Positions 2,509 to 51,318 are shown, counted from the stretch's first letter. The stretch: DNA of 64,000 bases from Bacteroidota bacterium (GCA_025454835.1 JALONQ010000004.1:111144-175143); one strand, 5' to 3'. The notes: generated from the sequence alone by a model not told the origin. Made by a program: numbers and translations.

Positions 2509-4815
2509 TCAGACTGACGCGGTTGCCTTCTTCGACCCGGTGAAACGTCGAGCAGCACCATTTCCACCTTCAGCCTGGGCTCCGAAGACCGCCATCGCAG
2601 CCATGTTGACGATGTCATTCACTTCGATGCCCGGGGCCATCAGATAGACCGGCTTGCGGATACCCATGAGAATCGGTCCGATGGCCGTCGCACCACCCGC
2701 CTTGCTCAGCAGCTTGTAGGCGATGTTCGCCGACGTCAGATCGGGGCAGATGAGCACGTTGGCGGGCTCGCTGAGCTTCGAGAACGGATAGTGTTCCGAC
2801 ATGATCTCGCGGCTCATGGCCGTATCGGCCATCATCTCGCCATCGACGATGAGCTTCGGGTCGCGCTGATGCACGATCTCGGTCGCCTTGCGCACCTTTT
2901 CGGTGAGCGGATGCGGCGTGCTGCCGAAATTGCTGAACGAGAGCATGGCGATCCGCGGTTCGATATCGAGCTTTCGCACCGCGCGCGCCGACAGCACAGC
3001 GATCTCAGCCAGCGTCTCGGCATCGGGCTCGATATTCACCGTCGCGTCGGCGATGAACAGCGTCTGATCGCGGAACACCAGCATATACAGGCCCGCAACG
3101 CGACGCACGCCGGGCTCCGTGCCGATGATCTGCAGCGCCGGCTTGACGGTGGCCGGATAGTGCTGCGTCAGGCCGGAGATAAGCCCGTCCGCATCCTCCA
3201 TGTCCACCATCATCATGCCGAAGATGTTGTGCGTCTTCACCTGCCGCTCGGCGTCGACACGGGTCATGCCCTTGCGCTGCCGCTTGGCATAGTACGCCGT
3301 CACGTATTCATCGAATCGGGGTGACTTGCCGGGGTTGATGATCTGCGTATCGCCCAAGTCGAGTCCCAGATCGCTGATCCGCTGCCGGATGAATGTGCGG
3401 CTGCCAAGAAGGATCGGATGGGCGATCTTCTCGTCCACCAGCATCTGCGCCGCGCGAAGGATACGGTCCTCTTCGCCCTCCGGGAAGACGATCCGCTTCG
3501 GGTCCGATTGCGCCTTGTGAATGAAGAAGCGCATGACCTCGCGCGAACGACCAAGACGAGCCTCGAGGGAGTCACGATAGGCCTCGAAATCCTTGATCGG
3601 CTGCTTCGCGACGCCCGTTTCCATGGCCGCTTTGGCCACGGCCGGGGCGACCCACAGCAGCACGCGAGGGTCGAACGGCTTCGGAATGATGTATTCGCGT
3701 CCGAATTCGATGTGCTTGCCGCCGTAGGCGCGCACGACCGAATCGGGCACGTCTTCCTTCGCCAGCTTCGACAGGGCCATCGTAGCGGCGATCTTCATCT
3801 CGTCGTTGATCGCGGTCGCGCGGCAGTCGAGCGCACCGCGGAAAATGAACGGGAAACCGAGAACGTTGTTCACCTGGTTCGGAAAATCAGACCGCCCCGT
3901 TGCCATGATGATGTCACTGCGCGCTGCCAACGCATCGTCGTACGTGATCTCGGGGTCCGGGTTGGCCATGGCAAACACGATCGGCTTGTCGGCCATCGAG
4001 CGCACCATGTCTTGCGACAGAATGTCCTTGACGGAGACGCCGCAGAATACGTCGGCACCTTTCATCGCTTCGGCCAACGTACGGGCTTTCGCATCTGTGG
4101 CGAAGTGCTCCTTGTAGGGGTTCATTCCCTCGGTGCGCCCCTTGTACACTACTCCTTTCGTGTCGACCAGAAGCATGTTCTCTCGCTTGACGCCCAGCTT
4201 TTCGTAAAGCTTGGCGCATGCGATGCCGGCCGCCCCGGCACCACTGAAGACCACCTTCACTTCGGCGATCTTCTTGCCGACGACCTCGAGGGCATTGAGA
4301 AGCGCCGCGCCGCTGATAATGGCCGTGCCGTGTTGGTCGTCATGGAAGACGGGGATCTTCATCGTCTTCTTCAAGGTCTCCTCGATGTAGAAACACTCCG
4401 GAGCCTTGATGTCCTCAAGGTTGATGCCGCCGAACGTCGGTTCGAGCAACTGGCAGGCCTTGATCACTTCGTCGGCGTTGTGCGTGTCGAGCTCGATGTC
4501 AAACACATCGACGTCGGCAAATCTCTTGAACAGCACTCCCTTCCCCTCCATGACCGGTTTGCCGGCCAACGCGCCAATGTCGCCCAGCCCGAGCACGGCG
4601 GTCCCGTTGGAGATCACAGCAACCAGATTTCCCTTGGCCGTGTACCGGTAGGCGTCTTCAGGATTCGCCTCGATCTCGCGGCACGGTTCCGCAACCCCCG
4701 GAGTATACGCGAGCGACAGGTCTCTCTGCGTGGCGCAGGGCTTGCTGGGAATGACTTCGATCTTGCCACGCCGTCCCTGGGAGTGGTAGTCGAGGGCTTC
4801 TTGTTTGCGGATCAT
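2509..4815 (-). CDS. maeB: NADP-dependent malic enzyme with C-terminal phosphate-acetyltransferase-like domain
   Basis: The malic-enzyme N-terminal half is collinear with E. coli MaeB ([29 protein letters not shown]...[28 protein letters not shown]...[33 protein letters not shown]) and a PTA-like C-terminal half follows. The start is taken at the internal Met ([11 protein letters not shown]) at 4815. The longer 4866 start overlaps a repeat element. Confidence 0.9.
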
Positions 4816-45587: not shown

Positions 45588-46760
45588 CTAGAATCGGGCG
45601 TTGATGAGCGGCAGATACCGCGCCCACGACGGGTTCGACTCGACGATGTTCAGCACCCCGAGTTGAACTCCGAAGAGGTCTTCGGCGTGGTTCAACACAC
45701 CGATTGTGATACCGCTTTGTCTTCCATAGGTGCGGTTGTACGCCGCCATCGTCAGGCCCTTGAGGGCGGAACTTTCCGTCCAGATGAGTCCCAAATTGAT
45801 CCCCGTGATCGAGCGGCTTTCGTTCTTGTAGAGGGCGATGTTGAATCCCGTGACGCCGCCGTCGGCCCTGATCTGCCCCAACGTGACGTTGATACCGACC
45901 GCTTCGCGCTCGGTGAAAACGGCCGCTCCGCCGAACGAGATGCCGGTGATGCACCTCTGCGCCACGAGTCCCAGACCGCTGAGGTTGATGCCGGTCATAC
46001 ACCCTTGCGCCACGAGTCCCAAACCTGCCACACTGAACCCGGTCATGTCTCCCTGGGCGACGGTCCCAAGTCCCGCGAAGTTGATCCCGGTCATGTCACC
46101 TTGCGCAACCGTCCCCAGCCCGGAGAAGTTCAAGCCAAGCATGTTGCCCTGCGAGACCGCCCCGAGACCGGCGATGTTGACGCCGCTCATGTCCCCTTGC
46201 GCGACCGTGCCAAGGCCCGCAACGTTGATGCCTGTCATACTCCCTTGCGCGACCGTGCCGAAACCGGCAAGGTTGATCCCGAGGAGATCCCGCTGGGCGA
46301 CGATACCGAAGAGCGCCGCCGTGGCGCCCGTGATGGACCCTTGCGCGACGACGGCCAAGCCGCCGAAGGCAATGCCGTTGACGTCGCCTTTTGATACGAT
46401 ACCGAGGCCGCCGAGAAAGATGCCGTTCATTTCGCGCTCGGCCAAGATCGCCCCCAAAGTCACGCCGGCACCGTTGATCACTTCACCCGAGGGAGCGACC
46501 AGTCCCAGGGCCAGCCCATTGATCCTTCCCTGCCACGGACCCGGGGCTGGCTTCCATAGAGTGACATTCGCGCCATTGACGTATTCCAGCTCGTCGTCGG
46601 ACCAGTTGAAACGGATGCCTGTGATGCGCTGAACGTGGCCGAACCCGATGCCGACGTCGCTTGTGCCCACGAGAAAACCTTCGGATGGGCGTCGGTCGTC
46701 TTGGGCGTTAGCGATCGAGAATGACAGGAAGAGAAGTAGCGCTGTGGCGGTCGTTTTCAT
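45588..46760 (-). CDS. secreted protein composed of ~18 tandem 16-residue Gly-rich repeats (predicted beta-solenoid)
   Basis: A signal peptide (MKTTATALLLFLSFSIANAQ) is followed by the repeat G(I/V)N(x)AGLGTVAQGDMT, for example GINVAGLGTVAQGDMSGVNIAGLGAVSQGNMLGLNFSGLGTVAQGDMTGINFAGLGTVAQGDMT. I did not recognise a named family. Confidence 0.6.
   Translation of the reverse strand: MKTTATALLLFLSFSIANAQDDRRPSEGFLVGTSDVGIGFGHVQRITGIRFNWSDDELEYVNGANVTLWKPAPGPWQGRINGLALGLVAPSGEVINGAGVTLGAILAEREMNGIFLGGLGIVSKGDVNGIAFGGLAVVAQGSITGATAALFGIVAQRDLLGINLAGFGTVAQGSMTGINVAGLGTVAQGDMSGVNIAGLGAVSQGNMLGLNFSGLGTVAQGDMTGINFAGLGTVAQGDMTGFSVAGLGLVAQGCMTGINLSGLGLVAQRCITGISFGGAAVFTEREAVGINVTLGQIRADGGVTGFNIALYKNESRSITGINLGLIWTESSALKGLTMAAYNRTYGRQSGITIGVLNHAEDLFGVQLGVLNIVESNPSWARYLPLINARF
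45666..46526. repeat. 48-bp tandem coding repeats (about 18 units; most regular at 45945-46280)
   Basis: The DNA shows reiterated ...gaccgtgccaag/gccgg/aa.ccggc.a(g/c)gttgat(g/c)cc.gtcat... units that match the 16-aa protein repeats. Confidence 0.6.
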
Positions 46761-46969
46761 GATGCGGGTCGTCGGTGTGCATGGGATGTGCAACGACAGA
46801 GTATACTCCTTGAACCGCCCCTTTGTTACAAGGGTTGCCGCCAGTGCGCCAGCACGATGGAATTGCCCCTTCTTCCGGAATGGTCCGGACGGCGTTCGGC
46901 CCGGATGCACAGGTGCGGTGACGTTTCGCCGGAGCCCGCCGATCCGGGGGGCTGGCGATGATGCGCCGA

Positions 46970-47248
46970 CTATCTCGTAAGCAATATCCGGTGCATGACG
47001 TGACGACCTTGGTGGTCGAGGCGGGCCAGGTAGAATCCTGCAGGGAGGTCGTCGGCCGAGAACTCTACGGAGTAGTTGCGTCCCGGCTCGACGGTGCCGT
47101 TGAAGAGGGTCTTGATCTGCTGGCCCAGTGTCGTGAAGACACGCAGAGTAGCGATGCCTTCAGAAGGAACGCTGAATCGCACCTGCGTGCTTGGCCGATC
47201 CGGGAGCCGGGCACTTTCGATCGACCAGCGGGTCTGCAATGGGTCCAT
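46970..47248 (-). pseudogene. orphan T9SS C-terminal sorting domain (Por_Secre_tail) fragment, 92 aa
   Basis: The ORF reads VRFSVPSEGIATLRVFTTLGQQIKTLFNGTVEPGRNYSVEFSADDLPAGFYLARLDHQGRHVMHRILL. This is a complete CTD with only about 20 aa preceding it. There is no cargo domain, and the upstream DNA is the tRNA/hairpin region. Confidence 0.45.
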
Positions 47249-47392
47249 AGAAGGTCAACCCTGGCTTTGTATCGGCCTTGTGTTGAAACACGACGATGGA
47301 GTACACACCAAAGACGCGACGCGGGATCCAACACGTCCCGCCAGAACGGGCCATTGGTAACCACGGCGATGCCCAGCGAGAGGCATCATGCG

Positions 47393-47804
47393 CGGACGCT
47401 GTAGGGATCGGATCCCTCGATATCCTCGGGACTTCGGGCCGCTTTGGTAACTTGCGGCCCTCAGCCTACGACCTCTGCCTTCGCTTGCGCTTCGGCGGAC
47501 AGGCCCGCCTTGTCCCAATTCGGCCCGCGAACGATTCTTGTGAGCGGATGCCGAATTGAGGACCCCGCCGATGTTGGGCGGGGTAAGGGCAGCGCTCTGA
47601 ACCAGCCCGTCACCCGCAGTGCGGGTGACGAGGCCTCGTCCCACCTTCGGTGGGACGGGCTGAGCCCCGTCACGCCCGAAGTTGCCACGCAACTTCGTTG
47701 GCGTGACGCGGGTCCCTGCCTGCCGGAGTGAACTCCGTCACGCAGGCAGGCTCGTTCCGCCTACGAGCTTGCTGCGCAAGCTCGGGCGGAACGGGACTAA
47801 GCGT
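47393..47804 (-). other. second tRNA-Val copy interrupted by three hairpin-rich insertions (pseudo-tRNA or unconventional intron-containing tRNA)
   Basis: All four segments of the intact tRNA recur in order on the same strand: cggacgctgtagggatcg (47393-47410), cctacgacctctgcctt (47465-47481), gtaagggcagcgctctgaaccagc (47583-47606), ctaagcgtcc (47795-47804). They are separated by inserts of 54, 101 and ~188 nt in the T-loop, the 3' side of the anticodon loop, and the D-loop. Two nt (aa) and four nt (tgag) are missing at two junctions. Confidence 0.5.
47607..47794. repeat. array of five consecutive bipartite GC-rich stem-loops (CGTCAC...GTGACG-type)
   Basis: The hairpins are: gtcacccgc-agt-gcgggtgac; cgtcccacc-ttcg-gtgggacg; ccgtcacgcc[cgaagttg-ccacg-caacttcg]ttggcgtgacg; cctgcctg[ccggagt-gaa-ctccg]tcacgcaggcagg; gttccgcc[tacgagcttg-ctgcg-caagctcg]ggcggaac. 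Confidence 0.6.
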
Positions 47805-47833
47805 CCACATCTTCCCAGCAGCGCGAATGACCG

Positions 47834-47908
47834 TGGACGCTGTAGGGATCGAACCTACGACCTCTGCCTTGTAAGGGCAGCGCTCTGAACCAGCTGAGCT
47901 AAGCGTCC
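47834..47908 (-). tRNA. tRNA-Val (anticodon TAC)
   Basis: The reverse complement is GGACGCTTAGCTCAGCTGGTTCAGAGCGCTGCCCTTACAAGGCAGAGGTCGTAGGTTCGATCCCTACAGCGTCCA. It folds as a cloverleaf: acceptor GGACGCT/AGCGTCC, D-stem GCTC/GAGC, anticodon stem CTGCC/GGCAG with loop CTTACAA, T-stem GTAGG/CCTAC with loop TTCGATC. CCA is not encoded. Confidence 0.9.
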
Positions 47909-47988
47909 TTTCATTAATGTACTCAAATTGGATTAATCCCACCCGATTGCGTATTGTTGATATCGTGAAAGCCACCACACAAAGCAGA

Positions 47989-50745
47989 ATGAAGAACAGC
48001 GGTCACCGGGGCCTGCGAGGGCTGTGTGCGTTGCTGACCTGCCTCACACTTTTCGAACCGGCCGTCGCCCAGTTACGCCCCGGGAACCTCACGAGCTGGA
48101 CCATCCAAGAGAATGTCGTCACGCTCGGAGCGACCGACTTTCGCTACCGCATCCGGTTTGTCAACGATCGCACGGCACGCGTGGACGTCCTCCCGTTCGC
48201 CCTCTCGGCGCCCGAGTCGTCACTCGTAGTGGACCCTCTCCCCGCCGCTTCGGTCACGACGATGGAGACCGATTCTTCGGTCGTCGTGACCACAGGCTCG
48301 CTGACCGTACGCGTGCACAAGCATCCGATGCGGCTCGCGTTCGAAGGACCGATGCTCGGTTCGGTCATGCGCGAGACGCAGGAGATCAGCGCGTCGGTGC
48401 TCGGCAACCTGCGCGCGATCTCCTTCGCACTGGAGCCGGGCGCTCGCATCTACGGCTCGGGTCCGCGCAGCACGCAACTCGATCTTCGGGGGGCGGCGTT
48501 CGACCTGTGGAACTCGCAGGTCTTCGGCTATTCCACGCCCGTCGCGACGATGAACGCGAATGTCCCGGTCTTTCTGTTCTCCACCAACCTTGCGGTCTTC
48601 GTCGACCATTGGCACCGCGGTCGCGCCGACTTCGGCGTCGGACGTCCAGACGCATGGGGCTATGAGATCGACGGCGGAGAGCTCTCTTACTATGTCATGG
48701 CGGGAACGTCATACCAGGATCTGATCGATCTGTATACCCAGCTGACGGGCCGGCCCTCCCTCCCTCCCCGCTGGACGCTCGGATATCTCCAATCGAAGTT
48801 CGGCTATCAGAACGCGACAGAAGCGCTGACGATGGCGTCGACGCTGCGTGCGCTCGGCATTCCCGCCGACGGACTCATCCTCGATCTCTACTGGTTCGAC
48901 CGGATGGGCGATCTGGCCTGGAAGGCCTCCGCGTGGCCCGATCCGGCCGGCATGATCGCCCAACTGCGAACACTTGGCCTGAAGACGATCGTGATCACGG
49001 AGCCGTACGTCACGGCGTTCTCGGGCCTGTATGCCGAAGGCCAATCGCTCGGTCACTTCGCCAAGAATGCGGCCGGGTCGTCGCGGTTGATCCCCAACTG
49101 GTGGTCGTGCAACTGCAATGCGGCGTTGGTCGACCTCACCTCTCCGGCGGCGCGCGCCTGGTGGTGGAGCAAGCATCCGTCCTTCCTGGACGCCGGCGTG
49201 GCAGCGCTCTGGACCGACCTTGGCGAGCCCGAGTCGCATCCTTCCGACATGGTGCATCATTTGGGCGATGCGTCCCGCGTCCACAATCTCTACAACCTGC
49301 TCTGGTCGCGGACCATCGCCGAGGGGTGGGCTGCGTACCGGCCGGACGAGCGCCTGTTCAATCTCACGCGGTCGGGCTGGGCAGGCAGTCAGCGGTACGG
49401 CACGGCCCTCTGGTCGGGGGACGTCAGCAAGACCTTTGGCGGACTCGCCGCCCAGCGGGCGATGATGCTCAATGCGGGATTGTCGGGACTCGGATGGTTC
49501 CACAGTGACATCGGAGGGTTCTGCTGCGGCACGTCGCCGACGGAGCTCTACATCCGCTGGATGCAGTTTGGCGCATTCGCTCCCATTATGCGGGCCCATG
49601 GGACCGGAGGACCGACGGAACCGTGGGGATTCGGCGATCAGGCGCTCCTCATCGCCCGCGACCTCATCCGGCTGCGCTATCGACTCATCCCGTATTGGTA
49701 TACGCTGGCGCACGAGCAGTCCGTCACGGGCATGCCGCCGGTACGACCGCTCTTCATGCTCGATCCTGACGATCCGGCGCTGGCCAACGAATCGCGCGCC
49801 TGGATGGTGGGACACGACCTGCTCGTGGCGCCGGTGACGCAGGACGGCGCCCGGTCGGTCACATTTCGCCTTCCGATCGGCACGTGGGTCGACTGGTGGT
49901 CCGGCGAACGCATGCTGGGAGCACGCGACGTGACCGTCAGCGCGCCGCTCGATCGCGTTCCGCTCTTCGTCCGCTCCGGAAGCATCGTGCCGCTGGGGCC
50001 GGTAATGCAGTGGTCCGACGCACGACCTCTCGACACGCTCACCTTCGTCGTCCATCCAGAGCCATCCCGCTCGCCATCCGCGACCATCTACGAAGACGAC
50101 GGCGTCAGTCACCAGTATCTGTCGGGAGCGTTCAACCACACGTCGATCGAACAGACGTGGACCTCCTTCAACGCCCAGCCGTCGATGGTTTTTCAGTTGA
50201 CTTCCGGGGACGGCACTTACGCCGGCAAGCCGTCAACGCGGGCGGTCGTCCTCGACATCCGGCATCTCGAAGAGGCGCCGCTCAGCATCAATGTGAACGG
50301 GAGGATCGTGGCCCCCTACGCTTCCTGGGATGATGTCCTGCAGGCCGGGGAAGGCGGGATCTATGACGCCTCCATGCATCGGCTCCAGGTTCTCTTCCGC
50401 GCGTCGGGCGACAGCGCGTATCAGGTCATCATGACCGACACGCGCGTGACCGCGGTCGCCGACCGACAGGAGATACCCGTGGGGATCGGACTGGAACAGA
50501 ATTTCCCGAATCCGTTCAACGGGGAAACGGTGATCGGGTATCGGGTAGCGGGATCCAGGCAGTGGGTCGAGGTTTCAGTCGCGGACGTCCTGGGAAGGAC
50601 CGTCGCAACCCTCGTCGACGAATGGAAGGAACCGGGAGCGTTTCAGGTGAGGTGGCATGTGGGCCCCCTGCCGTCGGGTATCTATTTCTGCAGGTTACGG
50701 GCGGGAGGAACAACTCTGACAACAAGGATGGCGCTGATCAAATGA
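47989..50745 (+). CDS. secreted GH31 alpha-glucosidase with T9SS C-terminal sorting domain
   Basis: The GH31 catalytic region is present (WTLGYLQSKFGYQNATE...GLILDLYWFD...LWTDLGEPES...GWFHSDIGGFCCG). It has a signal peptide (MKNSGHRGLRGLCALLTCLTLFEPAVAQ) and a C-terminal Por_Secre_tail (LEQNFPNPFNGETVIGYRVA...SGIYFCRLRAGG). Confidence 0.85.
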   Translation: MKNSGHRGLRGLCALLTCLTLFEPAVAQLRPGNLTSWTIQENVVTLGATDFRYRIRFVNDRTARVDVLPFALSAPESSLVVDPLPAASVTTMETDSSVVVTTGSLTVRVHKHPMRLAFEGPMLGSVMRETQEISASVLGNLRAISFALEPGARIYGSGPRSTQLDLRGAAFDLWNSQVFGYSTPVATMNANVPVFLFSTNLAVFVDHWHRGRADFGVGRPDAWGYEIDGGELSYYVMAGTSYQDLIDLYTQLTGRPSLPPRWTLGYLQSKFGYQNATEALTMASTLRALGIPADGLILDLYWFDRMGDLAWKASAWPDPAGMIAQLRTLGLKTIVITEPYVTAFSGLYAEGQSLGHFAKNAAGSSRLIPNWWSCNCNAALVDLTSPAARAWWWSKHPSFLDAGVAALWTDLGEPESHPSDMVHHLGDASRVHNLYNLLWSRTIAEGWAAYRPDERLFNLTRSGWAGSQRYGTALWSGDVSKTFGGLAAQRAMMLNAGLSGLGWFHSDIGGFCCGTSPTELYIRWMQFGAFAPIMRAHGTGGPTEPWGFGDQALLIARDLIRLRYRLIPYWYTLAHEQSVTGMPPVRPLFMLDPDDPALANESRAWMVGHDLLVAPVTQDGARSVTFRLPIGTWVDWWSGERMLGARDVTVSAPLDRVPLFVRSGSIVPLGPVMQWSDARPLDTLTFVVHPEPSRSPSATIYEDDGVSHQYLSGAFNHTSIEQTWTSFNAQPSMVFQLTSGDGTYAGKPSTRAVVLDIRHLEEAPLSINVNGRIVAPYASWDDVLQAGEGGIYDASMHRLQVLFRASGDSAYQVIMTDTRVTAVADRQEIPVGIGLEQNFPNPFNGETVIGYRVAGSRQWVEVSVADVLGRTVATLVDEWKEPGAFQVRWHVGPLPSGIYFCRLRAGGTTLTTRMALIK

Positions 50746-51318
50746 GATCATACCTGTTGTCTGCGAAATGCGAATTGTCACGCTCGTACTAGAAGGGAGA
50801 GCTTCCCTCCTCTTCAATTCGCAATTGACAATCCGCCGCACCGCGGCCTGCCAGCGACGTGCATGGTCTATTCCTTGAACGTGGCAAGCGGCAGGCAGGC
50901 GCTTCGCGGCAATTCGAAATCTCCACTAGCAGGGTGCTGAAAAACTCCCATTGAAAGAGTTTCACGCAAGGACGCAAAGACAGCAATGTGCGCAAAGGGT
51001 CGATTCTGATTCGTTTTGCGCCGCGGCCTTTGCGTACGCGATATCCAAAGCACGCGGCGGTCGCCGCCTGCCTGCCGAGAATGGAGCTGTTTGTAGAAGC
51101 GGTCTCAGAAACCCAGAATTCACAAAAACAAGCGTTTCACCCAGCGACCGCAGCGGAAGCAACGATCGCAGCGGTAAGAAACGAGCACCTTTGGAAAGCG
51201 TTGCGGCCGCTGCCAACGTCGCGAACCTGCCTGCGTGTCGCAGTCAGGCAGACGCCGCGCAAAACATTTTTGAGACTGCTTCTAGTCAGGCAGGCGCGAA
51301 ACCTTCTTCAGCATCCTG
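50746..51318. other. 573-bp GC-rich non-coding interval between convergent genes with multiple palindromes
   Basis: There is no protein-like ORF. The interval contains gcgaattg...caattcgc, repeated cctgcc/ggcagg inverted motifs, and gcgcaaa...tttgcgc. Confidence 0.35.

Follow-up and report, generated by a model that had tools for sequence, protein, structure and literature searches.

A tandem tRNA-Val copy interrupted by palindromic DNA in a Bacteroidota genome

We analyzed a 64-kb stretch of DNA (64,000 nucleotides, nt) from a Bacteroidota bacterium (GCA_025454835.1, JALONQ010000004.1:111144-175143; hereafter the window), in which an intact tRNA-Val(TAC) gene is followed by a second copy of itself that is split into short pieces by hairpin-rich inserts. 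The best explanation of the split copy, to which we assign a probability of about 0.7, is a non-functional tandem duplicate that was colonized by palindromes resembling repetitive extragenic palindromes (REPs) or miniature inverted-repeat transposable elements (MITEs) and was homogenized with its live neighbor. A redundant tRNA copy would thus have been dismantled loop by loop while its fragments continued to track the sequence of the functional gene. The evidence comes from the sequence of the pieces and inserts, from orthologous loci in related lineages and from the recurrence of the inserted modules elsewhere.

The live gene and its interrupted copy

The live tRNA-Val(TAC) gene lies on the minus strand at 47833-47908 (ARAGORN, 47833/4-47908; Rfam RF00005, 72.6 bits); it has an A at the discriminator position and no encoded CCA. 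The split copy (47393-47806) follows on the same strand and in collinear order after a 26-nt spacer (47807-47832, minus strand, read from the sequence). ARAGORN and Rfam report a single tRNA-Val(TAC) in the window and leave the second copy uncalled. The pairing of an intact gene with a collinear same-strand copy, on which the original prediction was built, is confirmed, the live gene by both programs and the copy by repeat comparison, and the locus recurs in identical assemblies: L170 (JGI 3300037408) matches the locus at 100% identity across 1100 nt, and L171 and L172 do so across the 806 nt that they cover. Since the same sequence is found in three further assemblies, the split tRNA locus is not an assembly artefact.

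Four collinear pieces on the minus strand account for 68 nucleotides that match the live gene exactly. Piece 1 (GGACGCTTAG; 47797-47806) corresponds to tRNA positions 1-10 (10/10 identical), piece 2 (47583-47606) to positions 15-36 with the anticodon TAC at its end (24/24), piece 3 (47465-47481) to positions 37-53 (17/17), and piece 4 (47393-47410) to positions 56-72 (17/17 over 47394-47410) followed by a discriminator G. The first three identities and the G/A difference at the discriminator had been predicted correctly, while the 18/18 given for the last piece proves to be 17 matches plus the discriminator mismatch. The inserts between the four pieces measure 190, 101 and 54 nt; the two shorter lengths stand as first given, and the longest had been put at about 188 nt. 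The 101-nt insert, previously placed between positions 37 and 38, in fact begins directly after the anticodon, at the canonical 36/37 site (TTAC before the insert, AAGG after it).

A displaced D-arm piece, GCTCAGC (47659-47665, minus strand), is an exact 7-mer of tRNA positions 10-16 and keeps the collinear order. It is weaker than the other pieces, as it also belongs to a local repeat, D4. Once it is counted there are four insertion points, and the only nucleotides truly missing are TT (T54/Psi55). Of the two junction deletions originally taken as signs of decay, the loss of TT at 54-55 is therefore real, whereas the four D-arm bases are retained in GCTCAGC.

The pieces do not add up to a tRNA. 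Joined in three versions, with and without GCTCAGC, they are not recognized by ARAGORN, and the joined product lacks T54/Psi55. Intron models, suggested as a check by the original prediction and applied in the intron mode of ARAGORN, revealed no second tRNA gene. An Rfam search of 47200-48000 at E <= 10 found no group I or group II intron and no other family beyond the live tRNA, and none at gathering score.

Orthologous loci were recovered via the neighboring GH31 gene and a small open reading frame (ORF) encoding a sorting domain. We refer to the window lineage as A, to L001, L085 and L086 as species B, to L089 as species F, and to L084, L087 and L088 as C, D and E. The GH31 gene is 80% identical between A and B, and 56% identical at four-fold degenerate sites. 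Species B holds homologs of the older D-loop insert, of the anticodon-loop element X and of the T-loop insert with its hairpin c, at 72-86% identity; across the alignable block from X to the 54-nt insert, identity is 81%, against 56% at the GH31 four-fold sites. The split architecture is older than the divergence from B. The tRNA-derived pieces of B are decayed (GCTCGGC at the place homologous to GCTCAGC; GCACTTCCCCTAC), and piece 4 is missing. In F, X directly follows the live tRNA, and the tRNA pieces are unrecognizable save for possible decayed traces. Four further loci (L084, L087, L088 and L090) have a single tRNA, then 77-131 nt, and then the same downstream ORF; the second copy is missing. 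As expected of a tRNA pseudogene, the split copy derives from its neighbor, has lost the tRNA fold, is decayed in B and is absent from four lineages.

Although the split is older than the divergence from B, the pieces share states that are unique to the live tRNA of this lineage, namely G26, a CTGCC/GGCAG stem, AGGTC and a GATC T loop. Lineage-specific states in the pieces of an older split copy point to recombination or gene conversion between the tandem copies. The same states resemble the second, pseudo copy of species B and not the live genes of B, C and F, so that conversion may have run from the pseudo-copy to the live gene. Reverse transcription halted by modified bases was considered as a source of the fragment ends and rejected, because the boundaries at 36/37 and 53/56 do not match the stops expected at m1G37 and m1A58.

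Species B carries an extra tRNA-Val copy that is 5'-truncated and divergent (L001 9714-9787; L085 5751-5824). Its differences from the live gene of B are mostly paired stem changes. It is also polymorphic, with GCAGG in L001 and GAAGG in L085, and for this reason ARAGORN calls it in L001 and not in L085.

Composition and recurrence of the inserts

Hairpin density at the split copy is far above that of the rest of the window: 5 of the 21 perfect hairpins with stems of at least 8 bp lie within 47562-47784, and the predicted RNA fold of 47385-47815 (minus strand) reaches -257 kcal/mol (z = -11.2). The 190-nt D-loop insert contains five hairpins. They had been described as five bipartite stem-loops, but only H1 (47753-47793), H2 (47715-47750) and H3 (47668-47708) are bipartite, each with an outer 9-bp stem and a second palindrome nested in its loop, while H4 (47637-47657) and H5 (47608-47630) are simple.

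The insert has an older and a younger part, neither of which was assigned a strand. The older part, H4 plus H5 (47607-47658), is homologous to a 53-nt insert of species B (BLAST high-scoring segment pair, HSP, of 83 nt; 72% identity, E = 1e-12), in which the counterpart stems are imperfect. The younger part, the H1-H3 block (47666-47796; defined by the inverted repeat I1, the perfect hairpins and the fold), is specific to this lineage and missing from B. Within it, H1 and H3 are inverted copies that flank H2 (I1; 71-nt arms, 72% complementary). The outer stem of H1 has an imperfect counterpart in B (CCCGTTCCGCC TAC GGCAGGACG); in the window the stem is perfect and has a 21-nt palindrome in its loop. 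This comparison of hairpins suggests growth via inverted duplication, the perfecting of quasi-palindromes and the addition of nested palindromes. Every predicted pair in the 190-nt insert (77/77) is Watson-Crick, with no G.U, and the two strands fold alike (-137 and -142 kcal/mol), which identifies the insert as a symmetric DNA palindrome cluster. H1 and H3 could act as 41-nt terminal inverted repeats of a MITE-like 130-nt unit with a 1-nt (G) end overlap. In a covariance-model search, H1 on the plus strand showed the layout of hairpin b of X, with GGGAC immediately next to piece 1.

At the heart of the anticodon-loop insert lies a 71-nt element, X (47512-47582, minus strand), supported by conservation, covariation and a shared fold. 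It lies directly after the anticodon and comprises hairpin a (CCCCGCC / GGCGGGG with a 7-nt loop), hairpin b (CAATTCGGC / GCCGAATTG with the conserved internal loop CCGCTC...TTCGCGG) and a GGAC tail directly adjoining AAGG of the tRNA. The A copy of X shares 79-80% identity with that of B and with that of F. In total, four species yielded five copies, L070 contributing two, and all five fold into the same two hairpins. In stem b, four base pairs show compensatory double changes and 90% of cells are paired, a result matched by 2 of 500 shuffles. The alignment holds six G.U cells, all on the tRNA-sense strand. Judged by z-score, X folds no better than shuffled sequence in B and F. X has no terminal inverted repeats, and the overlap at its ends is ambiguous, at 0-4 nt (AC / AAGG). 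We rejected a TTAC target of the IS608 type, as TTAC stands on the left of the window copy only. Compared with Rfam, X has no family match; a weak hit of the L070 copy to RT-6, whose 22.9 bits fall short of the gathering score of 46.7, was judged chance, and the window copy gives none.

The remainder of the 101-nt insert (47482-47511, minus strand) consists of AAGGCGG, which corresponds to positions 37-43 of an older-type tRNA, and a 23-nt insert, GCCTGTCCGCCGAAGCGCAAGCG, identified by alignment with B and by the k-mer ACAAGGC. The 23-nt insert is flanked by AAGGCGG and AAGGCAG and is missing in B. The 54-nt T-loop insert (47411-47464, minus strand; repeat and fold analysis) contains hairpin c (47436-47460) followed by AGGGATC, which repeats the first bases of piece 4 in inverted form; the insert is 86% identical to species B across 59 nt.

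The modules recur outside the split tRNA. L070 (JBEKAY010000010.1, SPRUCE 123, an unrelated Bacteroidota metagenome-assembled genome), which had been retrieved for another reason and whose X copies were a chance find, carries two copies of X in inverted orientation (nhmmer E = 8e-5 and 7e-4), one of them antisense to its tRNA. They belong to a block of about 270 nt (1106-1384) between a GroES-like gene and tRNA-Pro(GGG) that also contains a CCTGCCTGC palindrome and fragments of the tRNA-Pro. Behind the tRNA-Pro, parts of its own sequence (positions 42-53, 58-67 and 66-76) recur exactly and in collinear order, with hairpins between them; the GGAC end of X lies immediately before the CAAGG of the tRNA-Pro anticodon stem, and a 10-11-nt repeat of the tRNA-Pro 3' end (GCCGTCCCGA) brackets the block. 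This pattern of a split tRNA echo was observed independently in the two cases, tRNA-Val in the window and tRNA-Pro in L070. A single 10-mer echo of tRNA-Asn in L057 was dismissed as chance, and the hairpin and T-run found there look like an ordinary terminator.

The H2-type palindrome CCTGCCTGC...GCAGGCAGG is found again in two other metagenome-assembled genomes, L070 at 1179-1197 and L063 at 3791-3853, in the latter with 16 nt shared on each side and different loop content; the same type of arm thus recurs in both. Within the window, all five exact CCTGCCTGC arms lie either in the split tRNA or in a second non-coding block of 573 nt with several CCTGCC-type palindromes (50746-51318, no strand assigned), which is located downstream of the GH31 gene and before a TPR/SH3 gene. 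This second block has its arms at 50891, 51067 and 51226; its hairpin that spans 51226-51248 is similar to H2 (23-nt HSP, 87% identical to the H2 flank), and X-like AATTG/CAATT stems were assigned by eye only. The block folds with z = -3.6. A 37-nt stretch of it is 92% identical to species B (GCAATTCGAAATCTCCACTAGCAGGGTGCTGAAAAAC), and in the L002 and L003 lineages the equivalent spacer is only about 100 nt long.

Broader pattern scans for hairpin c and X added no further copies. A metagenome scan with a 21-base hairpin c pattern gave no matches, and one with an X core pattern gave three, all of them chance matches inside coding sequence. In viral sequences, an X tail pattern gave 19 chance-type matches, none confirmed by nhmmer, and with a stricter X pattern the number fell to 0; there were 56 matches to the CCTGCCTGC hairpin, a GC-rich hairpin that is not specific in that collection. 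Phage and plasmid collections yielded no matches. Covariance-model matches in L015 and L029 were discarded, as the sequence reads as coding or the match is marginal.

Origin of the split copy and competing explanations

We propose that, in the ancestor shared with species B, hairpin-forming DNA modules, one of them X, interrupted the D, anticodon and T loops of a tandem tRNA-Val duplicate. In the lineage of the window, the D-loop insert would then have grown from about 52 to 190 nt through inverted duplication (H1 and H3 around H2) and the nesting of new perfect palindromes in older hairpin loops. The pieces would have been kept identical to the live gene by recombination or gene conversion across the 441 nt that separate the copies. 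The split copy is probably transcribed as part of the 3' trailer of the live tRNA and not spliced into a tRNA. The modules themselves may be mobile, in the manner of REPs, REP doublets forming hairpins (REPINs) or MITEs, or may have spread by template switching. A pseudo-tRNA colonized by REP/MITE-like palindromes had been offered originally as the alternative to introns, and it is supported in outline: as far as their sequences tell, the modules behave like REP/REPIN/MITE DNA, being short palindromes that occur as inverted doublets, nest in one another's loops, form a symmetric cluster and recur in other loci and genomes.

Several observations weigh against this explanation. The hairpins differ among themselves, unlike those of a classical high-copy REP family, and CGTC is paired in them and not an unpaired tag. 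No transposase or REP-associated tyrosine transposase (RAYT) was identified, and there is no long ORF in or adjacent to the blocks, although the window ORFs were not scanned for the Y1_Tnp domain. Within the 64-kb window, no insert copy was found beyond the two blocks that flank the GH31 gene. The pieces, at 10-24 nt, are short for homologous gene conversion. The strong conservation of X and its G.U pairs on the tRNA-sense strand only could instead mean a functional RNA. Finally, the same split-echo pattern at a different tRNA in L070 hints at a mechanism more specific than random decay.

A further reading can be put forward tentatively. X-type hairpins (a stem, a 2-nt bulge, an inner hairpin, a stem and the tail GGAC) and CCTGCC-type palindromes could conceivably constitute an undescribed non-autonomous family of uncultivated Bacteroidota that prefers hairpin loops, both the D, anticodon and T loops of tRNAs and those of earlier palindromes, and leaves split echo tRNAs behind. 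We regard this as a minority possibility. Hairpin-loop targeting, if true, would be relevant to site selection by REP-like DNA.

Several known systems resemble the locus in part. In E. coli genetics, template switching at quasipalindromes turns imperfect inverted repeats into perfect palindromes with coupled arm changes, each reporter gene showing a single event. Such a process would fit H5 and the outer stem of H1, which are imperfect in B and perfect in the window, but it would here have to act repeatedly and also produce new nested palindromes. The locus shares with REPs, REPINs and bacterial interspersed mosaic elements (BIMEs) a palindrome length of 20-45 nt, stems of 8-11 bp, a frequent pairing into inverted doublets whose folding makes a larger hairpin (H1/H3 and the X pair of L070), and a clustered position behind genes in non-coding DNA. 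Nesting of REPs within target palindromes has been described, as have GTAG- and CGTC-tagged REP super-families, the CGTC type in Bacteroidetes and Chlorobi (Di Nocera et al. 2013, PMC3733652). Tagged REPs are defined by an unpaired GTAG or CGTC tag at one end, a 4-5-nt loop and a short tail (PMC3733652). Here, in contrast, CGTC is part of the stem in H3, H4 and H5, and loops measure 1-3 nt; also unlike REPs, the hairpins are not copies of one consensus and sit inside tRNA-derived sequence.

Palindromic elements in structured-RNA genes have a precedent in the Rickettsia palindromic elements (RPEs), reported as inserted in the tmRNA and RNase P M1 RNA genes (Ogata et al. 2002, as cited in PMC2229807). 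As that secondary account has it, RPEs too occupy positions that the fold tolerates; their hosts, however, are functional, single-copy genes, whereas the host here is a redundant copy that does not form a tRNA and has received three to four insertions in 75 nt.

The most probable competing explanation, although we consider it unlikely, is that the tRNA-Val 3' trailer gives rise to a functional structured RNA comprising X and perhaps the whole block, either a small RNA of the 3' external transcribed spacer (3'-ETS) type or a processing, termination or stability element, and that the tRNA pieces are incidental. Its appeal lies in X: an identity of 79-80% for both A-B and A-F against 56% at four-fold sites, a covarying stem b (four double changes, 2/500 shuffles), six G.U cells confined to the tRNA-sense strand, and the placement of X in A, B and F, immediately downstream of the tRNA on the same strand. 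However, X is missing in four related lineages that have the same neighboring genes, one of the L070 copies runs antisense to the tRNA beside it, the copies found number only five, the folds in B and F score no better than shuffles, and a promoter or terminator signal was looked for and not found.

Slightly less probable still is the scar of site-specific integrative elements at a tRNA hotspot, with the fragments as attachment-site (att)-type repeats and X as part of an element arm beside a recombination core, CAAGG in the anticodon arm. A direct repeat of the tRNA 3' end does bracket the block in both loci (17 nt in the window, 10-11 nt in L070), X ends in GGAC right before an (A/G)CAAGG-type sequence in two tRNAs, Val and Pro, and the breakpoints fall in the anticodon and T loops, sublocations that are said to be favored by tRNA-targeting integrases. 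Such scars would not account for the 5' pieces (positions 1-10, 10-16 and 15-36), and each part of the tRNA is present once and not as nested 3' fragments. The bracketed blocks span just 270-450 nt without an ORF, gene order on either side is conserved among relatives, and there is no integrase-like long ORF within a few kb in the window or L070, where the ORFs were not scanned against protein families. Both the trailer RNA and the integrase scar may nevertheless be partly true alongside the colonized pseudogene that we prefer.

Multiple introns in a bacterial tRNA, the reading that first drew attention to the locus, would require three or four introns to be removed at the RNA level to yield a functional tRNA, and we reject it as very improbable: the pieces are collinear, tile the tRNA once at 100% identity, include acceptor and anticodon stems that can still pair in the predicted fold and have one insert in the anticodon loop, yet the joined product is rejected by ARAGORN, the live copy lies 26 nt upstream, the inserts of 54-190 nt have no group I or II core and the largest is a symmetric DNA palindrome. 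The comparative data are the strongest evidence here, in that the supposed introns are conserved while the supposed exons decay or disappear in B and F, the opposite of what a spliced gene would show, and the whole copy is lost from C, D, E and L090.

Accordingly, resemblance to known tRNA introns is limited. Bacterial group I introns (in tRNA-Leu(UAA), tRNA-fMet and others) likewise interrupt the anticodon loop; they differ from the 101-nt insert in their length (>200 nt) and in having a P3-P9 core, which was not found here, as well as in the absence of additional D- and T-loop inserts, in joined products that are tRNAs and in conserved exons. The multi-intron tRNAs of Thermoproteales, with bulge-helix-bulge (BHB) introns at non-canonical positions, also have several interruptions that include the D and T arms. 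The host here is bacterial, with type IX secretion system (T9SS) sorting domains and Bacteroidota neighbors, junction bases are missing or duplicated, and the inserts are DNA-symmetric palindromes. Because the joined pieces form no tRNA, an archaeal-type BHB reading is largely moot.

We view the locus as instructive, although the system is not of a new kind. A tempting false positive is removed, since what looked like a bacterial tRNA with multiple introns appears to be a pseudo-tRNA filled with palindromic DNA. The locus also indicates uncharacterized palindromic families in a poorly sampled Bacteroidota lineage, one of which, X, has covarying stems; the repeated association of X-type hairpins with tRNA-derived sequence is the one thread worth following.

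Neighboring genes and the wider locus

Loci of this kind also matter for annotation. The contigs of several short-read assemblies end in or beside the tRNA/hairpin block (L002 1-85, L003 1-173, L171 1 and L172 1), and repeated pieces and palindromes probably break such assemblies at this locus. An 87-aa ORF called across the block, P0128, is spurious; searched against 5.8 billion proteins, its sole match was itself.

Downstream of the split copy lies a 92-aa ORF (46970-47248, minus strand) that encodes little beyond a T9SS sorting domain (TIGR04183, 20.4 bits, just below the cut-off of 23). It had been described as an orphan C-terminal-domain fragment indicating local rearrangement. This interpretation does not hold, as the ORF is conserved at the same place, directly downstream of tRNA-Val, in at least seven lineages, with 71-78% amino-acid identity; its four-fold sites are 36% identical between A and B. 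By its conservation, it looks like a real small gene and not a rearrangement fragment.

Upstream of tRNA-Val, a GH31 alpha-glucosidase with a T9SS tail is encoded at 47917/47989-50745. A protein search of the genome contigs with GH31 was dominated by the T9SS sorting-domain motif, and the best GH31 relative was 42% identical. Horizontal transfer of a GH31-tRNA cassette between A and B was considered and rejected, as flanking genes show similar A-B and A-C identities. The GH31 gene is present at this position in A, B, L002, L003, F and L090 and missing in C, D and E (L084, L087 and L088), where a TPR gene abuts the tRNA; at one and the same tRNA, the gene is thus polymorphic for presence and absence.

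Between GH31 and tRNA-Val, the divergent promoter region (window 47909-47988; L085 5540-5622; L089 480-551; L090 318-385) is strongly conserved, with the pattern CACGATATCAA...TACGCA...GGGATT.GTCCAATTTGAGTACATT and 64 of 76 positions identical between A and B. On the other side of the locus, a 440-aa protein (45588-46910, minus strand) consists of repeats of about 20 residues (GINxAGLGTVAQGxMT...) and weakly matches both surface repeats of the LA_2272 type and the VC2662 family.

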